Shown here: positions 12,589 through 44,800 of the stretch, in pieces
How the letters are laid out: the number at the start of each line of letters is the position of its first letter
How positions within the stretch are numbered: position 1 is the first letter of the stretch
Position numbers and translations under genes: made by a program
Notes under the pieces: model-generated
The model's database searches: none
Told to the model about the DNA's origin: nothing
The model's input: only the letters and a program-made list of their open reading frames with translations
NCBI GenBank assembly: GCA_900551865.1
Contig: URXV01000004.1
Span: forward strand, 5,597-69,596
Length of the DNA: 64,000 bases
Source of the DNA: an uncultured Rickettsiales bacterium
GTDB taxonomy: Bacteria > Pseudomonadota > Alphaproteobacteria > RF32 > CAG-239
Reading direction: 5' to 3'

Positions 12589-12879
12589 ATGAAAGATGTT
12601 ATCCTGAAAGCAGTGGCTAATCCGCCCAAATTGTTTTGGGGGCCTGTTCTGCCGACAGCGCTGAATGCCGGTTTGCAGATACCGTTTATGTTTATGGCTA
12701 TCGGTATGGGTGATATCAATCCTCTGGTATTTTTAGTCAGTATTGTTTTGGGGCATTTGATTGTCGTAGCCCTCGGGGCAAAAGACCCCCACTTGTCGGG
12801 TATGATACAGGCTTTCGGCCAGACTAATGTTGTACCGCAGAACTTATACAAAGTGAAAGGGCATAAATTTGAACCTTGA
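12589..12879 (+). CDS. virB3: VirB3/TrbD-like T4SS protein
   Basis: 96 aa with N-terminal LFWGPVLPTALNAGLQIPFMFMAI plus a second hydrophobic helix. It lies immediately upstream of, and overlaps, virB4. Confidence 0.7.
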   Translation: MKDVILKAVANPPKLFWGPVLPTALNAGLQIPFMFMAIGMGDINPLVFLVSIVLGHLIVVALGAKDPHLSGMIQAFGQTNVVPQNLYKVKGHKFEP

Positions 12880-15356: not shown

Positions 15357-15395
15357 ATCACTCAACAAACGTATTATTTGACAGGGAGGGAAATT

Positions 15396-16604: not shown

Positions 16605-16703
16605 ATAAAAGAAACGGAAAATTAAGAGTATATCAATAAAGTTTCGCTTAGAATGGATTTGCTCGCAGGCCTATGAACCAAAGATTATTAGGGAGGACAC
16701 GAA

Positions 16704-19636: not shown

Positions 19637-19648
19637 GGGAGGCAGGCA

Positions 19649-27375: not shown

Positions 27376-27564
27376 ATGTATAAAGCGCTGATTTTGGTAT
27401 TTGCCGTCTTAATTTTAGCCGCCTGCAATCTGGTTGGCAGCTATTACGAGCCTGAACCCGTCGGAATAGGCAAAGACGTGTACGAACTTAAGCTTTCTCC
27501 CTGTGCCTGTATAGAGGTGGAACTGCCGAAGACGCTGCCGGACTGGTTCCGGGCAATGAGCTGA
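27376..27564 (+). CDS. Small lipoprotein (VirB7-like by size and context)
   Basis: 62 aa. RBS AAGAGGA. Lipobox LAAC (MYKALILVFAVLILAAC). It lies between the two virB8 paralogues and upstream of virB9. Confidence 0.45.
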   Translation: MYKALILVFAVLILAACNLVGSYYEPEPVGIGKDVYELKLSPCACIEVELPKTLPDWFRAMS

Positions 27565-27580
27565 ATTAGAGGTACGGTTG

Positions 27581-28345
27581 ATGGCTGAACAGATTTCTTC
27601 TGACAATACAAAAAAACTGCTCTTGGAGGGAGGCGGAGCCAAAGCGGCGCCGCAGCCTCGTCCGGCACGCCCGCACCGGCGTCCCGGAAATGCGGATATT
27701 GTTGTCGAGAATGCAACGGAAAAGCGTTATCTGTGGACGGCGCGGGCTTTTGCCATCATCTTTGCCGTCAGCCTGTGCTGTAATTTGATTCTGACGTATG
27801 TCGTATTCGCCATAATGCCGCTGTATCGGATTGAACCGTATTTGTTCAGTTTTTCAAACAAAGAAGACCAGATATATACTATCCATCCGGTGAAAAATAT
27901 CTATGAACATAAATATTTGACGGAAATTTTTGTCAGGGAATATGTCCTTCTTCGTAATACGTTTGTTAATGATGTTGAAGAAATGGAACAGCGTTGGGGG
28001 GCTGGCAGTACGATACAGGAGATGTCCGCAACCGGAGTTTATGATAAGTTTCGCAAGGAATTTGCCGATGCGGCGATTGAACTTATCCGCAAGCATAATA
28101 TTACCCGTAACATAAAGATTTCTTCCGTAACCGAGGTTGGCGGTGTAAACGGTGAAACCTGGTGGCAGGTGGAGTTTCGGGTTGAAGATATGATGCCGGA
28201 ATATGAAACGCCCCGTTTGAGCGTGTGGGTGGCTTCCGTTAAGATAAGATACCGTGCCAAACGGGTTAAATTTGGCGAAAGGCTGAAAAATCCGTTGGGA
28301 TTTACCGTCCTTGACTATAAACAGGTTGAACGCAAAACAAATTAA
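27581..28345 (+). CDS. virB8: VirB8/TrbF-family protein, paralogue 2
   Basis: One TM (FAIIFAVSLCCNLILTYVVFAIM). Motifs YVLLRNTF..EMEQRW and NPLGFTVLDY. ATG at 27581 is preferred over TTG at 27578. Confidence 0.75.
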   Translation: MAEQISSDNTKKLLLEGGGAKAAPQPRPARPHRRPGNADIVVENATEKRYLWTARAFAIIFAVSLCCNLILTYVVFAIMPLYRIEPYLFSFSNKEDQIYTIHPVKNIYEHKYLTEIFVREYVLLRNTFVNDVEEMEQRWGAGSTIQEMSATGVYDKFRKEFADAAIELIRKHNITRNIKISSVTEVGGVNGETWWQVEFRVEDMMPEYETPRLSVWVASVKIRYRAKRVKFGERLKNPLGFTVLDYKQVERKTN

Positions 28346-28367
28346 TTGAATGTTTAGGGTATGCATA

Positions 28368-30356
28368 ATGACTAAAGTATTGAACATTTTATCAGCGGCA
28401 ATTTTATCGTTGGGGGCGCTTGCAACTTTGGCCGAGGCTCAGGTAACCAAAGATAATCTGGATCAGAACGCAGACCAGAGCCAGGGGAATTATGCAGCTA
28501 CCAATTTAAATTATTTGGGGGGCGTCGGATCGCTTGGTATGATGCAAAGCGCGTGGAAGGACCCTCTGCAGCACATGGGAGAAGGGCAGACACGGCCGGG
28601 GTATACCAAATATTATTGGACACCGGAATTGGTTTTGCCGGTCAGAGTCCGCGAGGGAATGTATACTCTGATTAATTTTCCGAATTGGGAAGTTATTGAG
28701 AATGTCTATATCGGCGACGGACAGTCGTTTAATGCGGAAATACAAGGGCCTTCAAGTTTGATGGTTTACCCGGATTCGTCGCAGTTTGTCGGAGTGGATA
28801 CCAATATGATTGTTTTTGGTCGATCCGGTAATAAATATGTTTTTTATGTTCAAAGTGAAACGGTAAATACCGACCGCATTACTAATGCTATTATTGATAT
28901 AGAAGTCGTTAAAAACCGTCAGAATGCCAACGGCTCTGCGGTTATCGGAGCGGGAACAGGCGGCGGCCACATAAACGCCAACAGTTACAGCCAGGACGGA
29001 ACCAGTGCGGATGCAACGTTTACGCGTAATTTGCAAAAAGAGGACTGGATTGAAAAAATTCCTGTCGATCCGACGAAATTCAGGTTTGATATTGAAGTAT
29101 ATGTTCCCAATCCCGACGATATTGTTATTGCGCCGGAGCGCGTTTGGCGTGATAACATATTCACATATATTGATTTGGGAGACAAAGCTCTGACTGCGGT
29201 ACAACGGCCGATTGTTACATTGATTGTCGAACGTTCCGAAACACCCGTAGGCTTCCGGACAGCCGGGCCGAACAACCGTTTGATTATTGTTGAAGGCATG
29301 GGAGATATGGTTTTGCGCAGCGGAAAACGGATTGTTTGCCTGAAGCTCCGTCGCGCAGATTCTGACGGGTTGGAAAATACCGTTTATGCCAAAACGAACG
29401 AGTGGGATCTTCAGTCGGCGCATGCTTCCAAGCCGGAAAATGGCCTTGAAACCGGGCAGTATGAGGACGTGTACGGTAATGGCGGAGCCTCTCGGCCGAC
29501 CATGGGAAATAATAGTACGTCGGGAAATAACAGTGCATCTGGAAATAGTGGCACATCAGGAACCGGTGCGGCATTTTTTGAAAATAATTCATTTTCTGGA
29601 ACGCAAAATGCGACACAAAATAGTGGCGGCTTAAGCTATGAAGACATCATAAGCGGGCAAAAAGTCCCGGCCGGCAATGCAAATCAGTCTGGCAGGCAGC
29701 CGTCTTCAGGAGAAATGTCGCTAAACGATGCCTCCGCATTAAATTCTATTCCGAAAGCAACGCCTGTTGTTGCTCCGGTACAGAATAAACAGGATAATAC
29801 AACAGCTCCGCATCCGTCTCTGTCCGGGCAATATGACGTCAAGGCCGGCGGTGGTGCAGAACTTGTTACGCCGGAATACAACGGGAAACAGGATGTTTCG
29901 ATAACATATCAGAAGGATAAAGTTCAGGGTACTCCGGCGGCAGGAACACCGGCCGTGGGGAATTCGTCCAATAACTCAAGCCCCGTGCTGATTACGCCCA
30001 AAGAAGATGCCGCTGATAAAAACGCTGTTGTTTCCGCAGAAACGGAAGCTTTGCTGAAAGAATTCCGTGACGGCAAGGCTTTTGCCAATGTTGATGAAAG
30101 CAATATTTCTATTGAATTGGGAACGGATGAAGACGTGAATAATCTTGAAAAGTTGTGGAACGATATTTCCAAAAATTATTCAGCCGCTATAGGAAAATAT
30201 CAGCCCTTTTATTCGGTGGACACGCCTGCCGATGGTCAGGGGAGAGAAGTTTTTCATCTCCGCGTCGGGCCGGTAAAGTCATTGGATGAAGGGGATAATA
30301 TTTGCAGCCAGCTTGGGCGTAACGGTATCTTTTGCAGCGTGGTCAGAATACAATGA
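28368..30356 (+). CDS. virB9: VirB9/TrbG-like protein with low-complexity linker and C-terminal SPOR-like domain
   Basis: Signal peptide MTKVLNILSAAILSLGALATLAEA; the ORF is open from 28350. VirB9-like N- and C-domains are present (YYWTPELVLPVRVREGMYTLINFP.., IFTYIDLGDK..PIVTLIVERSETPVGFR..RLIIVEG). A Gly/Asn/Ser-rich linker follows, then the SPOR-like end. Confidence 0.7.
   Translation: MTKVLNILSAAILSLGALATLAEAQVTKDNLDQNADQSQGNYAATNLNYLGGVGSLGMMQSAWKDPLQHMGEGQTRPGYTKYYWTPELVLPVRVREGMYTLINFPNWEVIENVYIGDGQSFNAEIQGPSSLMVYPDSSQFVGVDTNMIVFGRSGNKYVFYVQSETVNTDRITNAIIDIEVVKNRQNANGSAVIGAGTGGGHINANSYSQDGTSADATFTRNLQKEDWIEKIPVDPTKFRFDIEVYVPNPDDIVIAPERVWRDNIFTYIDLGDKALTAVQRPIVTLIVERSETPVGFRTAGPNNRLIIVEGMGDMVLRSGKRIVCLKLRRADSDGLENTVYAKTNEWDLQSAHASKPENGLETGQYEDVYGNGGASRPTMGNNSTSGNNSASGNSGTSGTGAAFFENNSFSGTQNATQNSGGLSYEDIISGQKVPAGNANQSGRQPSSGEMSLNDASALNSIPKATPVVAPVQNKQDNTTAPHPSLSGQYDVKAGGGAELVTPEYNGKQDVSITYQKDKVQGTPAAGTPAVGNSSNNSSPVLITPKEDAADKNAVVSAETEALLKEFRDGKAFANVDESNISIELGTDEDVNNLEKLWNDISKNYSAAIGKYQPFYSVDTPADGQGREVFHLRVGPVKSLDEGDNICSQLGRNGIFCSVVRIQ
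30102..30353 (+). other. SPOR-like peptidoglycan-binding domain at the VirB9 C-terminus
   Basis: ISIELGT..FHLRVGPVKSLDEGDNICSQLGRNGIFCSVVRIQ parallels the FtsN-type SPOR ending (..RVVIGPVKGKENADSTLNRLKMAGHTNCIRL) in its shared G-P-V-K core. Confidence 0.55.
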
Positions 30357-33300
30357 ACGAAAATACCCGTTTTGAAGAATATGAAAGAAAAACCAGAAAA
30401 ATAATCCTTACGATAGGAATTATTGCCGGCATTTTTTTCCTGTTCGGACTGCTGGTAATTTCGTCGGACGAAGAAAATTATAACCCGGAAGAAACCTCTC
30501 CTGATTTTGTTGAAAACCAGAATATTCTTCCTGATGTTTCTGTTGATACGGAGCCGGTGTTTATAGATGCGGAGGACACGCCTGCTTCAGAGCGAAAAAA
30601 GCCGATTAAGGTTACTCCGGCTCAAATTAACATGAACAAATTTATCCTCGGTGTAGATACGCAGAATCAGAGTGTCTTAACTATTGGAACCGACGGCAGC
30701 GAAAGTATCCATATTGAGCGGGTTGAGTTGGTGGAAGAGACAGAAGACGGATTTGAGTTTCGAGACAAATGCCGCAATCGGGATTTGCGCGGAGATGAAA
30801 CCTGCAACGTTCTGATAACATGGGTGCCGCATCTTCCCGGAAATGTACAGAATAATTTTAAAATAATCTGGTATGAAACCAGATTGGATAAATCAAGTGC
30901 AAAATCGGAAGAAGTCAGCATAAAGGGAAGTGCGGTTTATCCGGAGGACACGCGCCAGGGGTGCGATGCGTCAACGGGGTGCAGCATCGGTGGCGACGGT
31001 ATAGGCGCCCATCGCTTGGCAATAGGGCCGAATGGCGAAATTATCGGCTATATAGACGAAGCGGGAAATGTACATGACCGGGACGGCAATATTATCGGCC
31101 GCGTTAATGAAGACGGAATGGTTGTCGATTCTGACGGTAATATTATTGGCGTTGCCCAAAATATGAAATTGGCTTATGACAAAGACGGCAACATTATCGG
31201 CTATGTCAAAACCGACGGCACCGTTGTCGATTTGCAGGGAGAAGTTATCGGCAAGGCTCTTCCGGACGGAACGATTGTGAACAGCAAAGGCGAAGTTATC
31301 GGCAAAGCTGTTGAAGCCGGATTTGTTTATGATGAAAATGGCAAAATAATCGGCCGGGTTCTGCCTGACGGAACCGTGGTGGACATCAATGACCCCAAAA
31401 AAATAATCGGCCGGCTGAATGAAAACGGCGAGGTTGTTGATGAAAACGGTAACGTTATCGGTAAGGTAACATCTTCCGGCAATATTGTAGTCGATGAAAA
31501 CGGCAATGTCCTCGGCGTCGTAATGCCTGATAACAGCGTTGTGGACAAAGACGGCAATATAGTCGGTTATGTTGATGAAAACGGCAATGTTTACCGGGTA
31601 GCTGAAGAAAAAATCGGTACCAACGGTGAGAGCCGGAAAATCGTTTATGACAAAGACGGCAAAGCCGTCGGTTATGTTGATGAAAACGGCAAGGTCGTTA
31701 AATTTTCAAAAGACGATAAGCCGAAAGTCATCGGGAAAGTCGGTGCCAGCCGGCGTTTGGCTTACGATAAGGATGGCAATGTTATCGGGTATGTCGATAA
31801 AGACGGAACAGTCAGGGATTTCAAAGGCAACACCATTGGCAAAATGGATAAAGACGGCAATATTGTCGGCAAAGACGGGAAAATAATTGGTAAAGCCGGA
31901 GCTTATGCCAAATTAGCCTTAGATAAGGACGGAAAAGTCATCGGGCATATTGACGAACAGGGGCGCGTCTTCGACCACAATGGAAAACACATCGGCAATG
32001 TTGATAAGAACGGCAATATCATAAGCACGGAGCGTGCCGGCAATTCGGCGGATAAAAAGCGCATTGCGTTGGGGAAAGATGGCAAACCAATCGGTTATAT
32101 TGATGATGACGGCAATGTTGTTGATTTTGATGGAAATGTTATAGGCAAAGTTAATGATAAAGGCGACATCATAGATAAAAACGGCCGCAGGATAGGAAGT
32201 GCCGGCGATTATGCGACTCTTGCTTTTGATAAAAGCGGCAAGGTAATGGGAATAGTTGATGATAAAGGACGGGTCATCGGCAAAGACGGAAAATTGCTGG
32301 GGTTTGTTGACAAAGACGGTAAAATTATCGGAACAAACGGCAAGATAATCGGCAAAGCAGGAACTTCCCGCCGGCTCGCCTATGATAAAAACGGCAAGTT
32401 TATAGGATATGTCGATACTGACGGCACGGTAAAGGGATGCGGTGGTATAGTCTTAGGAAAAGTTGATAAAGACGGTAATATTTTGGATAAAAATAACCGC
32501 GTAATTGGCAAAGCCGGAGAAGTCAGGGAACTGGCATTTAACGGCAAGGGCGTGTTTATCGGCTATATAGACGATAAAAAACGCGTAATCGATTGCAGCG
32601 GCAAAATAATCGGTGTTGTTGATAAAAACGGGAACATTATTGAATCCAGCGGCGAAAATCTTGGTACCGCCGGAAATTTCAAACGTCTTGCGTATGACAA
32701 AGACGGCAAGGTGATTGGCTATGTAACGCCTGACGGTACTGTAAAGGATTTCAAGGGTAATCTCATCGGCAGAATGTCTGCAGACGGAACAATATTGGAT
32801 AAGAAAGGTCGGGCTGTCGGCAAGGCCGGCGATTTTAGGAAAGTTGCAACGGACAAAAACGGCAATATTATCGGTTATGTTGATGAACATGGCCGTGTTG
32901 TTGACGAGAAAGGTAAAATTGTCGGTTTTATAGATAAAAACGGCAATGTAGTCAAAGCCGGAGATACCGTCATCGGCAAAACCTGCGTCAGAAAGAAAGT
33001 TGTTTATAACCGGCGCAACCAGATTATAGGTTTTGTAGAAGCCAATGGTACCGTAAAAGACTTCAATAACAAAGTTATCGGCAATGATAAAAATGGAGAT
33101 GTGGCTGATACCAAAGGAATTCTAATTGGAAAGACCGGCATAGCTTTGAATGTTGTCCGCCGGAGTGACGATGTCGTTATCGGTTATGTTGACGATAAAA
33201 ACTATGTGCGCGGTAATGAAAACAAAATTGCCGGTCTGGTTGATTTAAAAGGAAATGTGCTGGCCGTCAGGGAAAATATCATTGGAAAACTGGATGCAGA

Positions 33301-36300
33301 TAAGAAGACGCTGCGTGATAAAGGCGGTGAAATTATCGGTTATATGAAAAACAATAATTTCGCTTTTGATAAAAGCAATGAAATAATCGGATATGTAAAT
33401 GACAAGGGCGAAGTTGTCGCATCGGGAGAGATAATTTGTACGGCCTGCAAGAGCGCTAGGCTCGCTTATGATAAAAATGGCAATATCCTCGGATATGTTG
33501 ATGAAAACGGCAATGTTATCGGACCCGACGGAAAAATTGTCGGATATGTGGATAAAGACGGCAATGTTATAGGCGCCAATGGCGAAATAATCGGAAAAAT
33601 CGGCGATGGCCGCAGGCTGGCTCTTGATAAAAACGGTAAAGTCATCGGCTATATTGAGCCGGACGGCACAGTGAAGGATTTCAAAGGAAACATCCTTGGC
33701 AAAGTCGATAAAGACGGCAATATTGTTGACAAGGACGGCAACATCATCGGCAAAGCCGGTGCGGAACGCCGCCTGGCATTAGATAAAGATGGAAAGGTTC
33801 TCGGCTATGTCGATGAAAACGGGCGGGTTATCGATGAAAACGGCAATGTACTGGGGATGGTCGACAAAGATGGCAATATTATCGGAATTAACGGCGATAT
33901 TATCGGCTCGGTGGGCGAAGCCAAAAATCTGGCGTACGACAAAGACGGCAATATAATAGGCTACGTTGGCGAAAATGGCGAAGTCAGGGATTTTGCCGGA
34001 AATACGCTGGGGTATGTCGACGATAACGGTAATATTCTCAATAATACCGGAGAAATTATAGGTTCAGTCGGCAAAAATGGCAAATTAGCTTATGACAAGG
34101 ATGGCAATGTTATCGGATATGTTGATGAAAACGGCAACGTTTACGACTTTGATGGAAATTTAATCGGTAAAGCCAATCCTGACGGTACAATTACGGATCA
34201 ATACGGCCGGGTCATTGGCAGGGTAGGGGGAACCGCCGGGCTGGCTGTTGACAAAGACGGCAATGTTATCGGTTATATCGGCGAAGACGGAAACGTCTAT
34301 AAAGAAAACGGCGAACTGTTGGGTTTTCTGGATGATGACGGCAACGTCGTCGGGGTAACCGGAGAAGTCTTGGGAAAAGCGGATATAAGCAAGCGTTTGG
34401 CTTATGATAAGGACGGCAAAGTTATTGGTTACATTGATGATGATGGAACGGTTCATGATTTTGACGGCAATTTAGTCGGATATTTGGGCGAAGACGGGAC
34501 GATTCATGATATCAATGGCAATATCATCGGCAAAGCCGGAGATTTGTCCAAAGTTGTAGTTGACGAAAACGGCAAAGTTATCGGCTATGTTGATGATAAA
34601 GGACATGTAATAGGAAATGGCGGCAAGGTGATTGGGTTTGTTGCTGAAGACGGAACTGTTCATGGCAGCAGCGGAGAGGTAATCGGTCGCCTTGCGCAAA
34701 ATGGCAGCGGAACATTGAGCGTTGTTAATCGCCGGGCAGTATTGGACGGTAACGGCAATGTTATCGGCTATGTCGATGAAAATGGCAATGCCCGTGATTT
34801 TGACGGTAATATTTTAGGAACCGTGCAGGAAGACGGCAGCATTAAAGATTCTTCGGGAAAGATTGTCGGCCGGGCTGGCGACAATATGGAGTTTACTGCT
34901 GATGAGAACGGAAAGATTACCGGAAAAGTGGGGGAATATTCAAATCTGGCCGTGGATAATGACGGCAATGTTATAGGTTATGTTGGAAAAGACGGAAAAG
35001 TATATGATGCTGACGGGTTGGTAATAGGATTTATTGATGAGAATGGAAACGTCATCACCTCACGGGGTATTAAAATCGGCGCCGTCATAAAGAAGGATAT
35101 GATAGCTGTTTCCCCGAACGGATACAGCTTGGGAAGCATCAACAATCGCGGAGAAGTCGTTAATGCCAAAGACGAGGTTATTGGCAAAATACTGCCGAAT
35201 TCATTAATTCGGGCAACGGAAGGCAACAGCATTATCGGCAAAACGGTTGTCGGCGGTTTGGCTGTAGGCTGGGGATGCAGGCACTACGGATATGTTGACC
35301 GCGATGCAAAGGTAAAAAAAGACGGACAGGATACCGGATACCGGATGTTATTTGACCGCAGCATTGTAGATAAAGACGGCAATTATACCGGCGACGTAGC
35401 CAAAATAGGCTGGGTTCGGGATGATAAATGCAATATCATCGGCAAAGCCGGTTCTGACGGCTATGTGCGCGGCGAAAACGGGGAGTATGTCGGCTGTGTC
35501 AATCCTGACGGAGGAGTTTTGAATCCTGACGGAAAAGTCATCGGAAAAGTTTTTGAAATGTCCTATGCCCTGTATTACAGCGGCGAGATGATGGGACTGC
35601 TGACCCCGGACGGAAGCATTAAGTCAGGAGCCGGAACGGTTGGATGTGCAAATCTTCAAGGAGAGGTTCTGAACAAGGACGGTTTTATCGTTGGACAGGT
35701 GATGGACAAGTCTCAGGCGTATGATTTAAATGGAAAATTTATAAATAATTTATCAACATTCGGTTATGACAGCACGGAAGTTATTCCCAATACTAAAATT
35801 CTCTTGAACCGCCTTATTGTTAACCCGAAAAAAGAAATAAAGGGAATAGTGCTGCCTGAGAAAAATATAGTTGTCGATTCTAACGGTAAAGTTATCGGAC
35901 ATCTGTTTGCCGATGGTTATGTTTACAATCAAAAAGGCATTGCCGTAGACAGATTCATTTATGACGGAAGTTCTTTTTATGCAAACCGTCCCGGACGGCT
36001 TTTGCCGCAAGGGAATGTAGTGGATTTTAACGGTGATTATATTGGCTTTGTCAATGGTGATGGTACGGTTATAGATGTTTTGGGAACAGTTCTGGGACGA
36101 ATTGATGCCAAAGGTCGGATGTTTAACGAAAAAGGAGAATATAAAGGCGGAGTTCTACAAACCGGAGTTGGAATTGGGTATGACGGTTCGTATCTTGGAT
36201 ACGTCAGTAAAAGCGGCAAAGTGATTGACGTAGACGGCAATATGAGCGGGCTTGTCAGCTCAGACGGGCATGTGCTTGATAAAAATAAACAGATTATCGG

Positions 36301-36940
36301 CGAAGTCATCGGCGAAGATATTGTCATAGATGTTCAGGGCAATGTAAAAGGGTATCTGAACGCGTTCGGAGATATCATTGACGTTGAAGACAAAATTGCG
36401 GCGACAGTCCTTCCCGGCGGTACGTCAAACAAAAACTATAGTGTCCTGAAACATGGGGTCGTTTTGGATTATTCGGGGCGCATAATCGGGCAGGTCGTAG
36501 CGGATGGGTCGGTAGTTTCGGCTGACAATCGCCGCATCGGAAAAATACTGAGCTCAGGGCAGGCTGTTAATGACAGGGGGATTCTCTTAGGAGAAATCGT
36601 TGAAGGGGATATTGTAATAAACGAACAGGACAAAGTGGTTGGTTTTGTTAATGCCGAAGGAAAAGTACTGGACGAGGAGCAGTCTGTTATAGGAAAAATG
36701 ATTTCTTCAAATTTAGTTGTAGATAACAATGGAAAAATTATGGGACATCCGTATAAAATAGGTGCTAATATACTAGGGAACGGAGGAAAATATTTTGGTC
36801 GCCTTGCCCCGAACGGCAATGTGCTGAGTATAACAAACGGAAGGATTGGATATTTGAAGAGCAACGGCTCATATATAAATATCAGAAATCAGGTTTCCGG
36901 ATATGTATTGGATGAAGTCGCTCAAAACCGGAGGAACTGA
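30353..36940 (+). CDS. Giant single-pass membrane protein made of ~100 copies of a 17-residue repeat
   Basis: ATG at 30353 overlaps the virB9 stop (ATGA); the ORF is open from TTG 30332. Short basic N-tail plus one TM (IILTIGIIAGIFFLFGLLVI), then a ~170-aa non-repeat domain. The rest, to the C-terminus, is the unit (I/V/L)G-x-(V/I)-x-x-DG-x-(V/I)-x-D-x-x-G-x-(V/I). Confidence 0.85.
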   Translation: MNENTRFEEYERKTRKIILTIGIIAGIFFLFGLLVISSDEENYNPEETSPDFVENQNILPDVSVDTEPVFIDAEDTPASERKKPIKVTPAQINMNKFILGVDTQNQSVLTIGTDGSESIHIERVELVEETEDGFEFRDKCRNRDLRGDETCNVLITWVPHLPGNVQNNFKIIWYETRLDKSSAKSEEVSIKGSAVYPEDTRQGCDASTGCSIGGDGIGAHRLAIGPNGEIIGYIDEAGNVHDRDGNIIGRVNEDGMVVDSDGNIIGVAQNMKLAYDKDGNIIGYVKTDGTVVDLQGEVIGKALPDGTIVNSKGEVIGKAVEAGFVYDENGKIIGRVLPDGTVVDINDPKKIIGRLNENGEVVDENGNVIGKVTSSGNIVVDENGNVLGVVMPDNSVVDKDGNIVGYVDENGNVYRVAEEKIGTNGESRKIVYDKDGKAVGYVDENGKVVKFSKDDKPKVIGKVGASRRLAYDKDGNVIGYVDKDGTVRDFKGNTIGKMDKDGNIVGKDGKIIGKAGAYAKLALDKDGKVIGHIDEQGRVFDHNGKHIGNVDKNGNIISTERAGNSADKKRIALGKDGKPIGYIDDDGNVVDFDGNVIGKVNDKGDIIDKNGRRIGSAGDYATLAFDKSGKVMGIVDDKGRVIGKDGKLLGFVDKDGKIIGTNGKIIGKAGTSRRLAYDKNGKFIGYVDTDGTVKGCGGIVLGKVDKDGNILDKNNRVIGKAGEVRELAFNGKGVFIGYIDDKKRVIDCSGKIIGVVDKNGNIIESSGENLGTAGNFKRLAYDKDGKVIGYVTPDGTVKDFKGNLIGRMSADGTILDKKGRAVGKAGDFRKVATDKNGNIIGYVDEHGRVVDEKGKIVGFIDKNGNVVKAGDTVIGKTCVRKKVVYNRRNQIIGFVEANGTVKDFNNKVIGNDKNGDVADTKGILIGKTGIALNVVRRSDDVVIGYVDDKNYVRGNENKIAGLVDLKGNVLAVRENIIGKLDADKKTLRDKGGEIIGYMKNNNFAFDKSNEIIGYVNDKGEVVASGEIICTACKSARLAYDKNGNILGYVDENGNVIGPDGKIVGYVDKDGNVIGANGEIIGKIGDGRRLALDKNGKVIGYIEPDGTVKDFKGNILGKVDKDGNIVDKDGNIIGKAGAERRLALDKDGKVLGYVDENGRVIDENGNVLGMVDKDGNIIGINGDIIGSVGEAKNLAYDKDGNIIGYVGENGEVRDFAGNTLGYVDDNGNILNNTGEIIGSVGKNGKLAYDKDGNVIGYVDENGNVYDFDGNLIGKANPDGTITDQYGRVIGRVGGTAGLAVDKDGNVIGYIGEDGNVYKENGELLGFLDDDGNVVGVTGEVLGKADISKRLAYDKDGKVIGYIDDDGTVHDFDGNLVGYLGEDGTIHDINGNIIGKAGDLSKVVVDENGKVIGYVDDKGHVIGNGGKVIGFVAEDGTVHGSSGEVIGRLAQNGSGTLSVVNRRAVLDGNGNVIGYVDENGNARDFDGNILGTVQEDGSIKDSSGKIVGRAGDNMEFTADENGKITGKVGEYSNLAVDNDGNVIGYVGKDGKVYDADGLVIGFIDENGNVITSRGIKIGAVIKKDMIAVSPNGYSLGSINNRGEVVNAKDEVIGKILPNSLIRATEGNSIIGKTVVGGLAVGWGCRHYGYVDRDAKVKKDGQDTGYRMLFDRSIVDKDGNYTGDVAKIGWVRDDKCNIIGKAGSDGYVRGENGEYVGCVNPDGGVLNPDGKVIGKVFEMSYALYYSGEMMGLLTPDGSIKSGAGTVGCANLQGEVLNKDGFIVGQVMDKSQAYDLNGKFINNLSTFGYDSTEVIPNTKILLNRLIVNPKKEIKGIVLPEKNIVVDSNGKVIGHLFADGYVYNQKGIAVDRFIYDGSSFYANRPGRLLPQGNVVDFNGDYIGFVNGDGTVIDVLGTVLGRIDAKGRMFNEKGEYKGGVLQTGVGIGYDGSYLGYVSKSGKVIDVDGNMSGLVSSDGHVLDKNKQIIGEVIGEDIVIDVQGNVKGYLNAFGDIIDVEDKIAATVLPGGTSNKNYSVLKHGVVLDYSGRIIGQVVADGSVVSADNRRIGKILSSGQAVNDRGILLGEIVEGDIVINEQDKVVGFVNAEGKVLDEEQSVIGKMISSNLVVDNNGKIMGHPYKIGANILGNGGKYFGRLAPNGNVLSITNGRIGYLKSNGSYINIRNQVSGYVLDEVAQNRRN
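31620..35080 (+). repeat. Higher-order in-frame tandem repeat (~57 aa / ~170 nt, about 20 copies) inside the giant gene
   Basis: The recurring block is KAG-x4-LAYDKDGKVIGYVDEDGTVKDFKGNxIGKVDKDGNIVDKDGxIIG. Many exact 15-20-nt DNA matches recur, such as gataaagacggcaatattgt. The copy number is an estimate by eye. Confidence 0.7.
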
Positions 36941-36941
36941 T

Positions 36942-39900
36942 TTGCGCATTAAGATATTTGGATTAGGCAGGATTATATTGTCTGCGGCGTTGTTTTGGAG
37001 TATCAGCCAGAATGCCGTTGCAGCAGATATGAGTGCGCTTAATTTTAATGGAGATCTTATCGGTAAAGTCATTCCGGACGGTTCTGTTATTAACTTCAAT
37101 AATGAGCTTGTCGGTCATATTACGGCTGACGGCTTTGTGTTAAATGAGGATAACAGCCTGGCAGGCGGCATTGTTCCGCAGGGAATAGCCATATCTTATA
37201 ACAACAGCATCTTGGGAAAAGTCAACAATGACGGTTCTGTAACATCAATTAACGATAATCTTGTCGGAAAGGTTCTGCCCAATGGTTTGGTTGTAAATGA
37301 TAATTATGATGTACTGGGAGCCGTGGTCTCTCCCGGGCTAGTTTACAATGATTCGGGCAGTATCGTCGGAAGAGTTTCCGGAGACGGGCGTTTTTATAAT
37401 CTTGCGGGAGAAAATTCGGGGTTTGTAACCGCGGCAGGATATGCTTACGGCTATGCCGGAAGCGAAAGAAAAATCTTTTTGGCCGGCAGGTTGATTTCTT
37501 CCAAGATGGTTGTTTCATCGCAGGGGAAATTTTTGGGAAGTATCGCCCCGGACGGAAAAGTAATTGATTTGAAGAAAAATGTTATCGGCAATATTCACGC
37601 CAACGGTTTTGCATACAGCCCAGACAATCAGGTAATAGGCCATGTTGTCGAGGGCGGGTATGCTTTTGCTCTTGACGGAAGTTATATGGGGGTTGTCAGC
37701 TACAACGGAGAAGTCGTCAATAATGGTACGGTTGTTGCCCTGGCAGTTAGCGGCAATCGCGTTATTAACAGGGAAGGCGGCATTATTGGCTTTACCGTAA
37801 GTATGTCTGCTACGGCTAATACGTTGGACGGGAAATATCTCGGGCGGATTACGGCAGACGGAAAAATCGTACGGGGGCGAAATAAGGTTGGAAAAATCGG
37901 CGCATCCGGGCATGTTATAGATGACAAAGGGACGATTATTGGCACCGTAAATGCAACCGGGCCGATATTTGATTATTTAGGACAGCTTCGGGCAAATGCT
38001 TCGATTGGCGGAAAGGTCGTTTCTTTGGAAGGCGTTGACTTGGGGATAATGAAATCCGATGAAGCTTTTGATGGCAACGGCAAACGCATCGGTAAAATCT
38101 TGTCTGAGCGGCTAAATTTTAACAACAGCAATGACTTCATCGGTATCAGTGGCGTTAATTCAGTTTTGGAAGTTGGCGGAAAAACTTATAGAATATCGCC
38201 TTATGGCTATGTTTTCAATGAAACGGGAAATGTTAACGGAAGAAATTTCAACTTTGGCGACATTTATTCTCCTGAGGGAACAGCCCTGTCCTACACATCA
38301 GGCAATGGAAAAACAGAAAACGGTTCTCTGAATGAAATTGCTCGATTAACCGGCTCCGGTATATTTCTGGATAAAAATGATAAGCCGTTAGGTAAAATAA
38401 TTGAAGACAAATATATAACGGACTTTTCTGGAGAAAGTCTGGGAACTGTCAATTCGACAAATCTGGTTGTAAACGGGCAGAATAAGGCTTTTGCCAAAGT
38501 ATTGCCGGATGGCAGCGTTGTGAGCCTTTCCGGTCGGATTTCCCGGAATTACGGTAGAGCCGGAAGTGCCCCGGTAAGCATCAGCATAAACGGCGACTAT
38601 CTGGGAACGAATTTAATAAGCGGACAGGTTGTAAACGGAAATGAAACGGTCGGAAAAATAAGCTCTAACGGATACGTTTTGGATAACATGGGAGCGTTGT
38701 ACGGAACTGCTCTCTCTATGGGAGCCGTTGTTTCGCCTGAGTGCGGATTTTTAGGCGTAGTTTCTGACGGCGGAGAGGCAAGAACAAGCAAAGACGCATA
38801 TTTGGGAATGGTTTTGGCAAATGGTCAGGTTGTTAATGAAACGGAGCAGGTCGTCGGCCATGTCATCCACCCGCGTACGGTAATTGGCGAAAACGGAACG
38901 TCAATTGGGGTGTTAAGTCCGTTGGGAACGGCTCTGAACTATAAAAATCAGAATTTGGGATGTCTGGATATCAATGGTAAAGTTCGAAATGCCCAGAAAG
39001 AAATTATCGGTCAGATAATCCCGTATATGTCGGTAATGGGGTTTGATGATAAAATTATCGGATATACGGATTTTTATGGTAATGTGGCAGATAGTTCCGG
39101 AATTCAAACCGCTGTTATTGATTTAGACGGCAGTATTAAGGCCAAAGATGGGCGCAATATTGGTGTTCCTTTTAAATACACGGTAGCTTTTGACCGGAAT
39201 AACGTTTATCTTGGGCGCGTAAAGGCTGATGGCAGTGTAGTTTCCGATAGCGGCGAAACTTTGGGGCAAGTTAGGTATAACGGCGAAGTAATCACTAAAA
39301 ATGGCGGGAACGGCTACGCGTTATATGATTTGTATGTCTATGACAATGAGGGGAAAACCGTCGGATATATCGCCAAAAACGGTCGGGTTTACAGCGTAAT
39401 GGGAGAAATTATCGGAACTGTTTATCAGGGATTTGTACTGGATAAAAAACAGAATTTAATCGGTAGAGGAGCAAGGGGCTATGAAATTCTTGATGCGCAG
39501 AAACAGGTAATAGGTCATTTGAAGTTAGATGGTTCGGTTGTTAATGTCAAAAATGTAGAAGTTGGAAAACTTCAGCCGGATGGAAAGGTAACGGATGCTG
39601 GCGGCAACGTAATTGCTGTGGCCGAAAAACTCCAATATTATCAAAAACCGGTTGAACCGGAAAATGGAGTAAAGACGGCTGTTGAAACCAAAGGTGAAGA
39701 AACGGAAAATAAAACTCCGGCAGACGAAATTCATGAACAAGACGAAACTGATAAAACAGCAGAAAGCAGTGATGCGCAGTCAGGCATATCCACGGAGGAA
39801 GAAAATATCCCGGAGCTGACCGAGGAAGAAAAAGAGGCCGCTGATACCAAAATAAACCATAAAGTCATAGGGATAGCCGTAACACCGGGAGGAAGGTATA

Positions 39901-41264
39901 TCGGTGATGTATACAGCAATAATAAGGTAATAGATGAAACCGGAACCGTTGTTGGCAACATGGGAGAAAATGGCGAAATCACCGATAACGAGGGGAATAC
40001 GGTAGGCTCTCTGCAAGAGCAGAAATCGGAAGATGCCAAAAATATTAATACAAGATGGTGGCAGCAGATTGCAAGCGGAGCTACGGTTAATCCCTGGGAT
40101 TACCGAAACGAAGTAACCAATGTCGGTCCCGGCGGCGGTATAGGTCCCGGCGGCAGATATAATCCGAAACGTGCCGCTATATTGTCCCAGCTGCAGGAAG
40201 AGCGCCGTAGGACAATGACTGCGGCAAAAGTAATGCCCGGCTATAATGCTGCTTCATACACCGGTTGGCAGGACGATTGGGGGATAAACCGGGCAGTTTC
40301 GACTTTGCGGGTTAATATGGATAATATGATTACCGCAGATAAACCGATACCGGCTGTTTTGGCCAGATCCTTGATTTCTTTGGGTGAAGCGCCTGTTACT
40401 GCAATTGTGGAAAGGAATGTGTACGGAGATTCGGGGCGTAACGTTATTATTCCGGCCGGAAGCCGGGTAATCGGCGGGCTGCAGACAGTAGATGTAGAAA
40501 GCCGTTTTGACAATTCAAGTGGCGGTGTCAAACTTGAAATATCTTGGAGCAGGATAATTCGTCCTGACGGGATTGCATTTCTTCTGGATGCAGGAAGGAC
40601 GCAGACCGGTGATGCGCAGGGGCGCGGTGGCGGCGCTTTGGGATATGTTGATGAACAGCTGGTCAAAAAATATACGTTGCCAATCGTAGGAACGATGGTC
40701 AGCTCGGCAATAACGTATATGATGGCTGCTGATGAAGACAGTACCGGAGAGGTGGAAACGTCCAAACAGCAGGCAGCAACAGATGCCCGGCAGGAATTTA
40801 TGGATAAGATGGATCAGATATTGCAGGAAATTATTGACAGCAAATCGCAAATTCAGCCGGTTACCTATGTTCCGGCCGGAACAAGAATAATCATTTATCC
40901 GATGACCGATTTGTGGCTGAGAAGTACGAAAGATATTGAAAAGAACGTTGAGACAGCGCGTCCGGGCGGCGGAGACGGCGGTTTGGTCAACGAAGTATAT
41001 CCTGACGATGGCGGGACAAGAAGCACATCTCAGGTAGAAGGAAATAATGCCAATAACAGCCAGAAGGTTATTTTGGGCAATCAGGCGCAGACCAACAATA
41101 ATAGCGGTGGTGATGGCCTTGTAAACGAAAATCCGCAGAATAATCCGAATGCTCCTCAGCCGAGAAAGAATATCGGGGCAATTCCGCCGCCGGCAGCAGA
41201 CGGATCGGTCACGGAAGCTCCCGAGAGTGAAGAAGAAATATCCGGCGATATTGAACTGTTCTAA
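36942..41264 (+). CDS. virB10: VirB10/TrbI-family protein with ~900-aa N-terminal 17-residue-repeat region (CagY-like architecture)
   Basis: RBS GGAGGA then TTG at 36942 (the ORF also has ATGs at 36903 and 36912). N-terminal anchor/signal IFGLGRIILSAALFWSISQNAVA. About 50 repeat units follow (LIGKVIPDGSVINFNNE, LVGHITADGFVLNEDNS ...), then an acidic linker. The VirB10 C-terminal domain is at 40335-40920 (PAVLARSL..VTAIVERNVYGDSGRNVIIPAGSRVIG..WSRIIRPDG..TYVPAGTRIIIYPMTDLW). A ~110-aa Gly/Asn/Pro-rich tail ends the protein. Confidence 0.8.
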   Translation: MRIKIFGLGRIILSAALFWSISQNAVAADMSALNFNGDLIGKVIPDGSVINFNNELVGHITADGFVLNEDNSLAGGIVPQGIAISYNNSILGKVNNDGSVTSINDNLVGKVLPNGLVVNDNYDVLGAVVSPGLVYNDSGSIVGRVSGDGRFYNLAGENSGFVTAAGYAYGYAGSERKIFLAGRLISSKMVVSSQGKFLGSIAPDGKVIDLKKNVIGNIHANGFAYSPDNQVIGHVVEGGYAFALDGSYMGVVSYNGEVVNNGTVVALAVSGNRVINREGGIIGFTVSMSATANTLDGKYLGRITADGKIVRGRNKVGKIGASGHVIDDKGTIIGTVNATGPIFDYLGQLRANASIGGKVVSLEGVDLGIMKSDEAFDGNGKRIGKILSERLNFNNSNDFIGISGVNSVLEVGGKTYRISPYGYVFNETGNVNGRNFNFGDIYSPEGTALSYTSGNGKTENGSLNEIARLTGSGIFLDKNDKPLGKIIEDKYITDFSGESLGTVNSTNLVVNGQNKAFAKVLPDGSVVSLSGRISRNYGRAGSAPVSISINGDYLGTNLISGQVVNGNETVGKISSNGYVLDNMGALYGTALSMGAVVSPECGFLGVVSDGGEARTSKDAYLGMVLANGQVVNETEQVVGHVIHPRTVIGENGTSIGVLSPLGTALNYKNQNLGCLDINGKVRNAQKEIIGQIIPYMSVMGFDDKIIGYTDFYGNVADSSGIQTAVIDLDGSIKAKDGRNIGVPFKYTVAFDRNNVYLGRVKADGSVVSDSGETLGQVRYNGEVITKNGGNGYALYDLYVYDNEGKTVGYIAKNGRVYSVMGEIIGTVYQGFVLDKKQNLIGRGARGYEILDAQKQVIGHLKLDGSVVNVKNVEVGKLQPDGKVTDAGGNVIAVAEKLQYYQKPVEPENGVKTAVETKGEETENKTPADEIHEQDETDKTAESSDAQSGISTEEENIPELTEEEKEAADTKINHKVIGIAVTPGGRYIGDVYSNNKVIDETGTVVGNMGENGEITDNEGNTVGSLQEQKSEDAKNINTRWWQQIASGATVNPWDYRNEVTNVGPGGGIGPGGRYNPKRAAILSQLQEERRRTMTAAKVMPGYNAASYTGWQDDWGINRAVSTLRVNMDNMITADKPIPAVLARSLISLGEAPVTAIVERNVYGDSGRNVIIPAGSRVIGGLQTVDVESRFDNSSGGVKLEISWSRIIRPDGIAFLLDAGRTQTGDAQGRGGGALGYVDEQLVKKYTLPIVGTMVSSAITYMMAADEDSTGEVETSKQQAATDARQEFMDKMDQILQEIIDSKSQIQPVTYVPAGTRIIIYPMTDLWLRSTKDIEKNVETARPGGGDGGLVNEVYPDDGGTRSTSQVEGNNANNSQKVILGNQAQTNNNSGGDGLVNENPQNNPNAPQPRKNIGAIPPPAADGSVTEAPESEEEISGDIELF
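37050..39600 (+). repeat. 17-residue repeat region of the VirB10-like protein
   Basis: Same periodicity and consensus as the upstream giant, but more diverged and less charged. A few more units follow the acidic linker (39860-40010). Confidence 0.65.
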
Positions 41265-41362: not shown

Positions 41363-42343
41363 ATGGGAAAGTTGGACGATGAGGTGCTCTGCTCCGTTTT
41401 GAGGCCGCTTGCCTATTGGTATGAACAGGAAAATATCGAGGAAGTTGCAATCAACCATCCCGGAGATATTTGGCTCCGCTTGCGCGGAAAACGGGCTTTT
41501 CCTTGGGTAAACTATAAAGACCCCAAACTCTCAAGAGAATATTTGACCAATCTTCTGCATATTATTGCCAATTTGAATGATCAGGAGTTTGATCCTATTA
41601 ACGGGTCTCCTGTAGTTTACGCCCGAATTCCCGGAGGGCATCGTTTCACCGGCGTGGCCGGAAAAAACATTGAATACGATTTGGACGATTCGGCAACGGG
41701 GGGCATAGCCATAACAATACGTCTTCATACGGATGATGTTGCTTTCGGTTTTGGCGATTACGGGCTGGAGCAAGGTAAAAGGCTAAAGGAAATAAATCCG
41801 TTAAAAAACATAAAAGACCCGGATGACGCTTATGAACGTCTTCTTCTTGCGTTACGCCGCGGAGACCATATTCTTGTCAGCGGTGGTACCGGTACCGGTA
41901 AAACGACGTTGTTGAACAATTTGCTAAAGCTTTTGGATATTCATAAGAGGGTTATTACCGTAGAGGATACGCGGGAACTTAATGTGCCGCAGCCAAACCA
42001 TGTTCACATCGTCCTGTCGCGTACGGAACAGACTAACAGTATGGATTATTCCAAAGTTATCGACTTGATTGTGCGTTTTACGCCTGATGCCATTATTGGC
42101 GGTGAGATTTCAACCAGCAATGCTGCCGCCATCTGGGAACTGATGGGTTCCGGTCATGATAACTGCTTGGCGACAATCCATGCGGAAAGTTCGACTGCTG
42201 CCTATGAAGCGTTTGTAAAACGTATAATGCGCACTCAGCCTCACATTGATGTGGAAAAAACCATTGAAGAAATGCGTCGCAAACTCCATGTCGTCCAAAT
42301 TGTCCGAGATGGAAACATCCGCGGCATAACCGAAATCACCTGA
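41363..42343 (+). CDS. virB11: VirB11/TrbB-family T4SS ATPase
   Basis: 326 aa. Walker A GGTGTGKTT, VITVEDTRE, and His box GHDNCLATIHA. Confidence 0.9.
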   Translation: MGKLDDEVLCSVLRPLAYWYEQENIEEVAINHPGDIWLRLRGKRAFPWVNYKDPKLSREYLTNLLHIIANLNDQEFDPINGSPVVYARIPGGHRFTGVAGKNIEYDLDDSATGGIAITIRLHTDDVAFGFGDYGLEQGKRLKEINPLKNIKDPDDAYERLLLALRRGDHILVSGGTGTGKTTLLNNLLKLLDIHKRVITVEDTRELNVPQPNHVHIVLSRTEQTNSMDYSKVIDLIVRFTPDAIIGGEISTSNAAAIWELMGSGHDNCLATIHAESSTAAYEAFVKRIMRTQPHIDVEKTIEEMRRKLHVVQIVRDGNIRGITEIT

Positions 42344-44756: not shown

Positions 44757-44800
44757 TCTTTCTAATATAAAAAAGCCGTTTTGTAAAGCATTATAGGGGG

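Follow-up and report, generated by a model that had tools for sequence, protein, structure and literature searches.

The virB9 gene of a type IV secretion system (T4SS) cluster, located within the window (the whole 64-kb stretch of DNA that was analyzed), was found to encode a VirB9 homolog that is fused through a long variable linker to a C-terminal domain with a predicted SPOR fold. We lean toward the reading that this domain binds the peptidoglycan glycan of its own cell and anchors or positions the T4SS. Literature searches on VirB9 or T4SSs with a SPOR domain and on the T4SS of RF32 returned no description of the fusion. In the literature searched, the VirB9-SPOR arrangement is thus undescribed for T4SSs, and it is a variant of a known theme, namely, peptidoglycan-binding modules on envelope-spanning machines.

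The protein of 668 aa is encoded by a single unbroken open reading frame (ORF) at 28350..30356 (plus strand), whose parts follow each other in this order from the N terminus to the C terminus:
28368..28439, plus strand: Met7 as the probable true start, with the Sec signal peptide MTKVLNILSAAILSLGALATLAEA, ending before Q (conserved residues; signal peptide read by eye)
28467..29414, plus strand: VirB9/CagX region, aa 40 to 355 (Pfam PF03524 and conservation)
29415..30101, plus strand: variable Ser/Gly/Ala/Asn-rich linker, aa 356 to 584, 229 aa (composition, indels, and low identity)
30102..30353, plus strand: conserved C-terminal domain with predicted SPOR fold, aa 585 to 668, 84 aa (Pfam SPOR, AF2, Foldseek, and conservation)
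The original prediction had described this order of VirB9, long low-complexity linker, and SPOR domain, which was borne out by Pfam, the homolog alignment, AF2, and Foldseek. It had also placed the start at 28368, and this start fits the family better than 28350: Met7 and Lys9 are near-invariant in homologs, and aa 1 to 20 are absent (gapped) in about one-third of them. The signal peptide was recognized by eye, with an AxA motif after the hydrophobic core; Ala30 and Gln31 are invariant among homologs.

The Pfam CagX/VirB9 profile (PF03524) matched aa 86 to 331 with 54.6 bits, above the gathering score of 34.2. The VirB9 region consists of an N-terminal and a C-terminal β-domain with a variable Gly-rich loop between them (aa ~187 to 222). 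Identity to homologs reached 0.85 to 0.97 per 20-aa block across aa 40 to 355 and was only 0.41 to 0.56 at aa 181 to 220; the β-domains had been predicted to extend to about position 29350, close to the end of this conserved stretch. The cutoff of the NCBIfam VirB9 equivalog TIGR02781 was not reached (34.7 versus 217.7 bits, with only aa 91 to 172 aligned), and on these profile scores the protein is classified as a divergent member of the VirB9 superfamily and not as a P-type equivalog. It shares the CagX match, the signal peptide, the position between virB8 and virB10, and an adjoining small lipoprotein with VirB9/TraO/TrbG/CagX of type IVA T4SSs, and by homology it would form the core ring in the outer membrane together with VirB7 and VirB10. 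Typical VirB9 proteins have a length of ~250 to 300 aa, whereas the protein studied here is ~2.5 times longer due to the linker and the SPOR-like domain.

The linker had been predicted to be of low complexity and to comprise ~250 aa. It is indeed long, variable, and of low complexity (S29, G27, A26, N23, T16, P14, and Q12; G/N/S/T/P/Q/A account for 64% of the residues), but it measures 229 aa and contains conserved motifs. In homologs, its length ranges from 147 to 267 aa (median, 197 aa), indels are abundant, and identity drops to 0.03 to 0.48 over aa 361 to 560. A full-length AF2 model, which was built on 32 sequences and is of low confidence (mean pLDDT of 45), showed the linker without secondary structure and with pLDDT values below 50. 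The conserved short motifs are EDVY (372 to 375), FF..F (409 to 415), PK (468 to 469), GQ.D (493 to 496), P.YN (508 to 511), S.NNS.PV.I (539 to 548), and T..LL.EF (565 to 572), and their strong conservation suggests that the linker does more than tether.

Three independent lines (Pfam, AF2, and Foldseek) assign the SPOR fold to the C-terminal domain. In the full protein, Pfam SPOR (PF05036) matched aa 596 to 666 marginally, with 21.2 bits against a cutoff of 21 (E = 3.8e-4); when only the last 84 aa were searched, the score rose to 25.5 bits (E = 1.7e-5). An AF2 model of the last 115 aa displayed the order β-α-β-β-α-β (β1, 586 to 593, ISIELGTD; α1, 596 to 614; β2, 618 to 624; β3, 634 to 640, VFHLRVG; α2, 645 to 656; β4, 663 to 666) with pLDDT values mostly of 90 to 95 and of ~77 in the β2-β3 loop. 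The best three PDB matches in Foldseek were all SPOR domains (RlpA 6i09, CwlC 1x60, and RlpA 6i05) and include RlpA bound to denuded glycan. The match to 6i09 had an E value of 4.3e-4, a TM score of 0.79, and an rmsd of 2.2 Å, and the matches below the top three were generic ferredoxin-like folds with an rmsd of >5 Å. Sequence searches of the PDB by phmmer (last 84 aa) and hmmsearch (family profile) yielded nothing at E ≤ 10, and the link to the solved SPOR structures is by fold comparison only. Alignment of family profiles by hhalign with a two-sequence FtsN/CwlC alignment covered only β2/β3-α2, with probabilities of 3.6% and 35% that serve residue equivalence and not homology; it reproduced the G-P-V-K core shared with FtsN that had been pointed out originally. 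Across 119 homolog clusters, identity in the domain is 0.77 to 0.95. The preservation of such a domain behind an indel-rich linker of low identity indicates selection on the C terminus. Cys652 and Cys662 are invariant in homologs, so that a disulfide probably stabilizes the domain, and the Cys pair together with the signal peptide fits a periplasmic location.

Like the SPOR domains of FtsN, DamX, DedD, RlpA, and CwlC, the domain comprises ~80 aa in an RNP-like β-α-β-β-α-β fold and carries the β3 motif (R/V)xGP(V/F), and as in FtsN and DamX it stands at the C terminus after a long low-complexity linker. In contrast to these proteins, its host is a secretion system subunit and not a divisome protein or wall hydrolase, its Pfam score lies only at the threshold (with distant members below it), and the Cys pair connects α2 with β4, whereas that of FtsN connects β1 with β4 (Cys252/Cys312). 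Further differences concern the ligand site. Among the ligand-contacting residues of SPOR domains, only the Gln in β1, which contacts the MurNAc lactyl carboxylate, is highly conserved (PMC6895207). This canonical residue (FtsN Gln251, RlpA Gln270, DamX Q351) corresponds to Glu589 here and in 119 of 120 homologs, and 21 of 22 diverse subclade members have Glu or Asp at this position (Gln in the remaining one). The conserved SPOR Phe four residues further on is replaced by Asp593 (120/120 homologs), and the loop that joins β1 to α1 is acidic (DED). Since β1 lies outside the Pfam SPOR match, which begins at profile position 15, the equivalence of Glu589 and Gln was derived from the ungapped extension of that match (position 15 = Val596), the β1 register in AF2, and the QVGAF/ELGTD motif rather than from superposition. 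The basic patch of SPOR domains (RlpA R302, R309, and R311; FtsN R285) is kept: hhalign placed His636 at FtsN Arg285 (= RlpA Arg309) and Arg638, two residues on, at RlpA Arg311. No variation occurs at His636, Arg638, or Arg666; in 119 of 120 homologs, position 632 is occupied by Lys or Arg; and distant family members have Arg at the FtsN Arg285 position. Glu589, Asp593, His636, and Arg638 form the invariant polar residues on the face that matches the glycan-binding sheet of SPOR domains.

The fused gene is genuine and conserved. At least 119 homolog clusters of >550 aa (among the 120 listed) share the whole architecture, and the gene order around virB9 is kept in 27 of 29 related loci from metagenome-assembled genomes. 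Divergent versions of this C-terminal module are found at the end of 43 of 94 related long VirB9 representatives (~45%; 0.7 expected by shuffling). Profile iteration retrieved 25 of the 43, and the other 18 align to those with an hhalign probability of 95% (E = 1.9e-8). PF05036 itself matched 11 of the 94 distant representatives at E ≤ 0.01 (best, 3.5e-6), and its precomputed annotation is present on many fragments. VirB9 (WP_203447098.1) of the T4SS on megaplasmid pMVF16-3 of Microvirga sp. VF16 (cluster at 671088-686254) carries a divergent version of the domain below the Pfam SPOR threshold; Microvirga thus offers a cultured host in which function could be tested.

The gene lies in a full virB2-virB11 cluster, with two virB8 genes upstream and virB10 and virB11 downstream:
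Upstream of VirB4: three VirB2-like small ORFs (assigned by eye)
12589-12879, plus strand: VirB3-like ORF upstream of VirB4 (assigned by eye)
12869..15322, plus strand: VirB4 ATPase (Pfam CagE_TrbE_VirB)
26474-27232 and 27578-28345, plus strand: two VirB8 paralogs (Pfam PF04335, 51 and 68 bits)
27376..27564, plus strand: 62-aa lipoprotein with lipobox LAAC between the virB8 paralogs (ORF list and synteny)
30332..36940, plus strand: 2,202-aa bitopic protein of β-flower repeats (PF21785, 474 bits, and PF21784)
36903..41264, plus strand: VirB10 with a TrbI domain (aa 1143 to 1339; PF03743, 102.5 bits) and a β-flower repeat insertion (PF21785, 181 bits)
41363..42343, plus strand: VirB11 ATPase (Pfam T2SSE, 95 bits)
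The 62-aa lipoprotein is 77 to 100% identical and syntenic in 28 of 29 related loci and has no match in Pfam or NCBIfam; it is a VirB7 candidate and a likely partner of the C-terminal β-domain of VirB9. The β-flower protein, which has one N-terminal transmembrane-like segment, directly follows virB9 in 28 of 29 related loci, here overlapping its stop codon. The T4SS is chromosomal, origin proximal, and vertically inherited in uncultured gut and rumen Alphaproteobacteria. These carriers are widespread, and the T4SS probably has a central role in their interactions with other cells.

A VirB1 transglycosylase had appeared to be absent, and we likewise detected none in the 64-kb window. A Pfam scan of 38 ORFs returned no SLT or lysozyme-like match, and a crude scan for SLT motifs, run on every ORF segment of ≥100 aa, gave hits in RecG and in an antisense ORF only, and in none of the T4SS ORFs. 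The hypothetical proteins of the Microvirga T4SS cluster were also free of SLT matches. Four ORFs of the cluster (408, 232, 448, and 1,818 aa) could not be assigned a function.

How T4SSs are fitted into and held in peptidoglycan is only partly understood, with VirB1 lytic transglycosylases and DotK of Legionella as the known elements. The conservation of the fusion in a large clade without recognizable VirB1 in its clusters points to anchoring or positioning through the core ring. In the mechanism that we propose, the two VirB9 β-domains would build the core ring of the outer membrane complex, and each VirB9 copy would continue as a flexible periplasmic tether of ~150 to 270 residues. The SPOR-fold domain at the tether end would bind the glycan backbone via its exposed β-sheet face, and a ring of such domains would anchor or position the machine in the sacculus. 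A wall-binding fold within VirB9 would mean many tethered wall-binding domains per machine; the usual symmetry of the T4SS core is 14-fold, which, if it holds, would give 14 domains. There is precedent in DotK (IcmN), which like our domain is a peptidoglycan-binding-type module on a T4SS outer membrane core: this lipoprotein of the type IVB core (Dot/Icm) in Legionella binds peptidoglycan sacculi and promotes the polar localization of the machine (PMC10266036; PMC7511231), for which it is required (PMC10266036). However, DotK is a lipoprotein in its own right, and its OmpA-like domain recognizes the peptide stem, whereas here a SPOR fold, in known cases a glycan binder, is fused to VirB9 of a type IVA-like system by a long tether. 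Wall-binding-type domains at the outer membrane ring are also found in type IVa pili (AMIN domains of the PilQ secretin; LysM in TsaP and FimV), where AMIN and LysM modules direct the machine to poles or sites of division without a dedicated wall hydrolase (PMC5285504; PMC10653833). Those cases differ in the fold, the machine, and the N-terminal position of the module, and the SPOR case is known from sequence and model.

A narrower form of peptidoglycan binding was the idea of the original prediction, in which the domain acts as a septal or polar address tag that replaces VirB1. It would recognize denuded glycan produced by division amidases, so that VirB9 and the T4SS would be preinstalled during the opening of the wall at the site of division or the new pole, and a dedicated lytic transglycosylase would be unnecessary. 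The best structural match, RlpA in complex with denuded glycan, speaks for this idea, as does the lack of SLT matches or motifs in the T4SS ORFs of the window and among the Microvirga hypothetical proteins. However, the scan covered 64 kb of the genome, VirB1 may lie elsewhere, and any of the four unassigned ORFs could hide a wall hydrolase; the link between the SPOR domain and the absence of VirB1 is drawn by analogy. Moreover, the carboxylate of Glu589 would face the lactyl carboxylate of MurNAc, so that canonical binding should be disfavored. The replacement of the canonical Gln makes specificity for denuded (septal) glycan uncertain, and we consider the address tag unlikely. We also put forward, as a doubtful suggestion, that the VirB9-associated domains constitute a distinct SPOR subfamily recognizing a cell wall feature other than denuded MurNAc-lactyl glycan. 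If this were true, a clade of alphaproteobacterial T4SSs would possess its own peptidoglycan "address" and a VirB1-independent installation in the wall. Such a feature could be, for example, sugars that bear an amine after de-N-acetylation, or the ends of strands around the hole that the machine occupies. For research on SPOR domains, the proteins provide a naturally occurring variant in which the key Gln is replaced.

We judge it improbable that the SPOR fold was co-opted to bind a T4SS component (VirB10, the β-flower proteins, or the pilus) or to oligomerize without binding peptidoglycan. The loss of the canonical Gln and Phe, the mixture of acidic and basic residues on the invariant surface, and linker motifs that resemble docking sites would all suit a protein-protein module. 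On the other hand, the basic residues that match the SPOR glycan patch are kept, and tethers of such length and variability are more often seen where a remote matrix has to be reached than where subunits make fixed contacts. A further comparison is Xanthomonas citri VirB7, also a T4SS core subunit with an acquired small α/β domain that decorates the outer membrane complex. Its extra C-terminal N0 domains reportedly contact each other to make up a rigid ring at the periphery; the SPOR-like domain, in contrast, sits on a disordered tether of ~200 aa. As further evidence against such a module, distant domain-bearing VirB9 proteins (loci L030 and L031) are encoded in ordinary virB8-virB11/virD4 clusters that lack β-flower proteins, so that the domain does not depend on these partners. 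Two domain-only searches retrieved the domain only in VirB9 proteins or their fragments, which would also suit a protein-protein module; however, the matches were only short fragments of this VirB9 family, which say little about other architectures and lend little weight to exclusivity.

It is very unlikely that the extension threads to the cell surface and that the domain binds the exposed wall of target cells (e.g., Gram-positive cells) or host glycans. The composition of the stalk and the Cys pair would be compatible with an extracytoplasmic or extracellular site, and the carriers live in dense gut communities, but VirB9 lies under the membrane in solved T4SS core complexes, and the sequence gives no hint of a translocation domain or of export of the C-terminal extension across the outer membrane.

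An artifact, be it a separate ORF joined by a sequencing or assembly error or a chance SPOR match, has a negligible probability, despite many short SPOR-only ORFs among metagenome gene calls and one lineage (P0347) with the gene called as two ORFs on 22 contigs, given the full-length homolog clusters, one continuous ORF at each of 27 species-level loci with a full match, and the mutual independence of fold and profile evidence. A conserved split of the gene was rejected for P0347, the best-sampled case, since the lesion at this spot differed among three assemblies, with an insertion in one, a run of N in another, and a stop codon in the third. Two of these three assemblies had a coverage of only 3.6 to 4.6x, and the split reflects assembly problems or decay.

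The virB9-SPOR gene belongs to a T4SS cluster with the order VirB2-like (three copies), VirB3, VirB4, five further ORFs, VirB8, lipoprotein, VirB8, VirB9-SPOR, β-flower giant, VirB10, and VirB11. The features of the cluster and its downstream neighbors considered here are as follows.

11024-12879, + strand: small VirB2-like membrane ORFs, three in tandem (124, 111, and 121 aa), then a VirB3-like ORF, ahead of VirB4
15378-26436, + strand: five consecutive ORFs of 408, 744 (coiled-coil), 232, 448, and 1818 aa, after VirB4
27376-27564, + strand: 62-aa lipoprotein between two virB8 paralogues, 77-100% identical in 28/29 related loci
28350-30356, + strand: virB9-SPOR, a single ORF of 668 aa
30332-36940, + strand: β-flower giant, 2202 aa, bitopic (PF21785, PF21784, DUF3659), between virB9 and virB10
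36903-41264, + strand: VirB10, 1453 aa, with six β-flower repeats ahead of the TrbI domain
42394-51446, - strand: yihA (engB) and yidC directly downstream of the T4SS, then recF, dnaN, and dnaA a few kilobases on

Because Met7 and Lys9 were nearly invariant among homologues, which start at this second Met, and residues 1 to 20 were gapped in about one-third of them, the codon at 28368 (Met7), taken as the start in the original prediction, is likely the true one. A typical signal peptide follows Met7 and ends in AEA/Q, with Ala30 and Gln31 invariant in homologues. When the full protein was searched against Pfam, both profiles matched above their cut-offs: CagX/VirB9 at aa 86-331 (54.6 bits; cut-off, 34.2) and SPOR (PF05036) at aa 596-666 (21.2 bits; cut-off, 21). 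The last 84 aa alone scored 25.5 bits against SPOR (E 1.7e-5). Since the two matches flank a stretch of 229 aa (aa 356-584) consisting to 64% of G/N/S/T/P/Q/A, the predicted layout of VirB9, long low-complexity linker, and SPOR-like end was correct, with coordinates essentially as proposed.

The structure of the C-terminal domain was predicted with AlphaFold2 from the last 115 aa and 36 family sequences. The model had the fold β1(586-593)-α1(596-614)-β2(618-624)-β3(634-640)-α2(645-656)-β4(663-666), with a block pLDDT of 90-95 over most of the domain that dropped to about 77 between β2 and β3. A Foldseek search of the PDB returned SPOR structures as the top three matches. The best was the RlpA SPOR domain in complex with denuded glycan (6i09; E 4.3e-4, target TM 0.79, rmsd 2.2 Å over 84 columns), followed by CwlC (1x60) and apo RlpA (6i05); generic ferredoxin-like proteins with an rmsd of >5 Å came below these. 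The core said to be shared with FtsN was recovered by hhalign ('FHLRVGPVKSLDEGD' versus FtsN 'NRVVIGPVKGKENAD'), using an FtsN sequence identical to PDB 1UTA.

A homology search yielded 1540 significant relatives. The best 120 of these homologue clusters were 61-99% identical to VirB9-SPOR, with a query coverage of at least 96% except for one 393-aa fragment. In a per-position conservation profile of 119 homologues of >550 aa, identity was 0.85-0.97 in the VirB9 part, 0.03-0.48 with numerous indels in the linker (aa 361-560), and 0.77-0.95 in the C-terminal domain; the linkers of homologues were 147-267 aa long (median, 197). The fusion was continuous in all 119, which speaks against a separate ORF created by a sequencing error. 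Among species-representative genomes, 29 related loci were found, and the match reached residue 668 in 27 of them. Their hosts are uncultured Alphaproteobacteria from the guts of humans, mice, ruminants, and other animals. Some of these genomes are mislabelled 'Acetobacter sp.', and the window DNA is 95-97% identical to the MAG 'Acetobacter sp. 46_36'. The order virB8a, 62-aa lipoprotein, virB8b, virB9-SPOR, β-flower giant was kept in 27/29 loci, the other two being truncated at a contig end. The β-flower giant directly followed virB9 in 28/29, and VirB10 came next in every locus whose contig reached far enough. Judged from this conservation, VirB9-SPOR is a real fusion gene under selection. 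Short 'SPOR-only' metagenome ORFs were rejected as separate genes; they are either fragments cut off at contig ends or the result of local lesions in an assembly. In one gut lineage (L032-L034, about 5900-6050), virB9 was called as two ORFs, one of about 437 aa and a 116-aa SPOR ORF. In this case, the best sampled, three assemblies, two of them at only 3.6-4.6x coverage, carried three different lesions at one linker position (a 5-nt insertion, an N run, and a TAA stop); this spot is an assembly-error or strain-variation hotspot, or gene decay.

The distribution of the module was surveyed, as the original prediction had proposed, by searching 1.84 billion representative proteins (50% clusters) exhaustively with a profile, which gave 496 VirB9 relatives at E<=0.001. 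The best 150 of these included 94 long representatives (330 aa or more). With an iterated domain profile, 25 of these were found to end in the domain, and a further 18 had a Cys-x(7-13)-Cys-x(1-12) ending, giving 43/94 with the module versus 0.7 expected by shuffling. Profile-profile comparison aligned the tails of the 18 to those of the 25 over 87 columns (hhalign probability 95%, E 1.9e-8); Pfam SPOR itself was detected in 11/94 at E<=0.01. Named sources were mostly 'Alphaproteobacteria bacterium' MAGs, and many members had no name or a protein name only. One cluster with the module was from cultured species of Microvirga. The 731-kb plasmid pMVF16-3 of Microvirga sp. VF16 carries virB9-long (L031, cluster 671088-686254) in the order relaxase, virB2, virB3, a 2.4-kb ORF where virB4 would lie, three hypothetical ORFs, a small ORF weakly matching a lipoprotein signal, virB8, virB9-long, virB10, virB11, and virD4. 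Its VirB9 (550 aa) ends in a divergent form of the same Cys-pair domain, below the Pfam SPOR threshold. A distant metagenomic member showed an unassigned gene followed by virB9, virB10, virB11, and virD4. Given this spread, which includes Microvirga and distant metagenomic clusters, the module is an old trait of a VirB9 clade, and it does not depend on the gut lineage's β-flower proteins. With its cultured host, the relaxase- and VirD4-associated Microvirga system could serve as an experimental model.

None of the papers searched describes a fusion of VirB9 to a SPOR domain, and NCBI names these proteins 'TrbG/VirB9 family' only. Because precomputed Pfam annotation assigns PF05036+PF03524 to a few members, databases implicitly contain the architecture. 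That machines spanning the envelope carry modules which bind the wall is well known; new here are the fusion of a SPOR-fold module to VirB9, its altered ligand residue, and its clade-wide spread.

In RlpA-glycan structures, the backbone makes most glycan contacts, and the sole highly conserved ligand side chain of SPOR domains is a Gln (RlpA Q270, FtsN Q251, DamX Q351) that touches the MurNAc lactyl carboxylate and GlcNAc; a basic patch is present without being conserved, and a Phe is frequent four residues after the Gln (PMC6895207). The Pfam match begins at profile position 15 (Val596), and ungapped back-extension from there equated position 8 (Gln) with Glu589 and position 12 (Phe) with Asp593. 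The AlphaFold2 β1 strand and the motif ELGTD versus QVGAF gave the same register. Among the best 120 of the 1540 homologues, Glu589 was present in 119 and Asp593 in all; in the wider subclade, 21 of 22 diverse members had Glu or Asp at the Gln-equivalent position and one had Gln. In place of the amide of canonical SPOR domains, the sheet face thus has a carboxylate. His636 aligned to FtsN Arg285 (RlpA Arg309), a position occupied by Arg in distant members, and Arg638 to the position of RlpA Arg311. With His636, Arg638, and Arg666 invariant and residue 632 Lys or Arg in 119/120 homologues, the basic side of the sheet is retained. Cys652 (α2) and Cys662 (β4 start) were the only residues invariant across the whole subclade, implying a disulfide unlike that of FtsN, which joins β1 and β4. 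Fold and residue conservation together identify the C-terminal domain as a SPOR-fold module whose sheet face is strongly conserved and bears a carboxylate. Peptidoglycan binding is the most economical putative function; denuded-glycan specificity cannot be assumed.

We consider it fairly probable that the VirB9 protomers of the outer-membrane core carry a periplasmic tether, disordered and about 200 residues long, each ending in a disulfide-stabilised SPOR-fold domain predicted to bind wall glycan. We estimate the span of a random coil of this length at about 10 nm, or as much as tens of nanometers if extended, so that the tether should bridge the distance between the sacculus and the core's outer-membrane layer. 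A ring of wall anchors would then surround the secretion machine. There are precedents: the Legionella core complex contains DotK, a sacculus-binding protein that promotes localisation to the pole (PMC10266036), and PilQ has AMIN domains by which pilus machines are pre-installed at sites of division with no dedicated hydrolase (PMC5285504).

The original prediction was that the SPOR-like domain could anchor or position the T4SS at septal or polar peptidoglycan and might relate to the apparent absence of VirB1; in its fuller form, septal targeting would take the place of VirB1. The apparent lack of VirB1 was borne out within the window: no VirD4, relaxase, or VirB1 was found in the 64 kb, none of the 38 ORFs scanned had an SLT or lysozyme Pfam match, and a motif scan of the T4SS ORFs revealed no SLT motifs. 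The Microvirga pMVF16-3 cluster likewise had no recognisable transglycosylase. In the window, the unassigned ORFs of the T4SS cluster could hide a hydrolase. The Gln-to-Glu change weakens the septal proposal, which we regard as a plausible sub-case but an unlikely one. The same change keeps alive a protein-protein role of the domain, as do short linker motifs (29415-30101, + strand; aa 356-584) conserved at >=80% across 120 homologues (EDVY, FF..F, PK, GQ.D, P.YN, S.NNS.PV.I, and T..LL.EF), whose sequences suggest docking sites for partners; we give this role a still smaller chance than septal targeting.

The T4SS is chromosomal; since the replication-origin gene set lies within a few kilobases, it is a core system and not a mobile element. 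The three VirB2-like ORFs, the VirB3-like ORF, and the duplicated VirB8 recall the Rickettsiales vir homologue (rvh) systems, which are rich in paralogues. The 62-aa lipoprotein, which has no family assignment, is likely the VirB7 equivalent. The β-flower giant consists almost throughout of about 27 β-flower repeats; to our knowledge, giant β-flower arrays have not been reported as T4SS components. None of the five ORFs after VirB4 could be placed in a specific family of Pfam or NCBIfam, weak, sub-threshold coiled-coil-type matches being all that the 744-aa ORF gave. In a crude hydropathy scan, none of the five had a multi-TM profile such as VirB6 should show. Four of them were compared across MAGs (the 408-aa ORF lay beyond the flanks examined), where they were present and fast-diverging, at about 30-99% identity. 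A divergently transcribed type IVb pilus cluster (1-10759, - strand) adjoins the T4SS and encodes a bundlin-like pilin, a T2SSF platform, a T2SSE ATPase, a PilO-like protein, a secretin, and a TcpQ-like protein.
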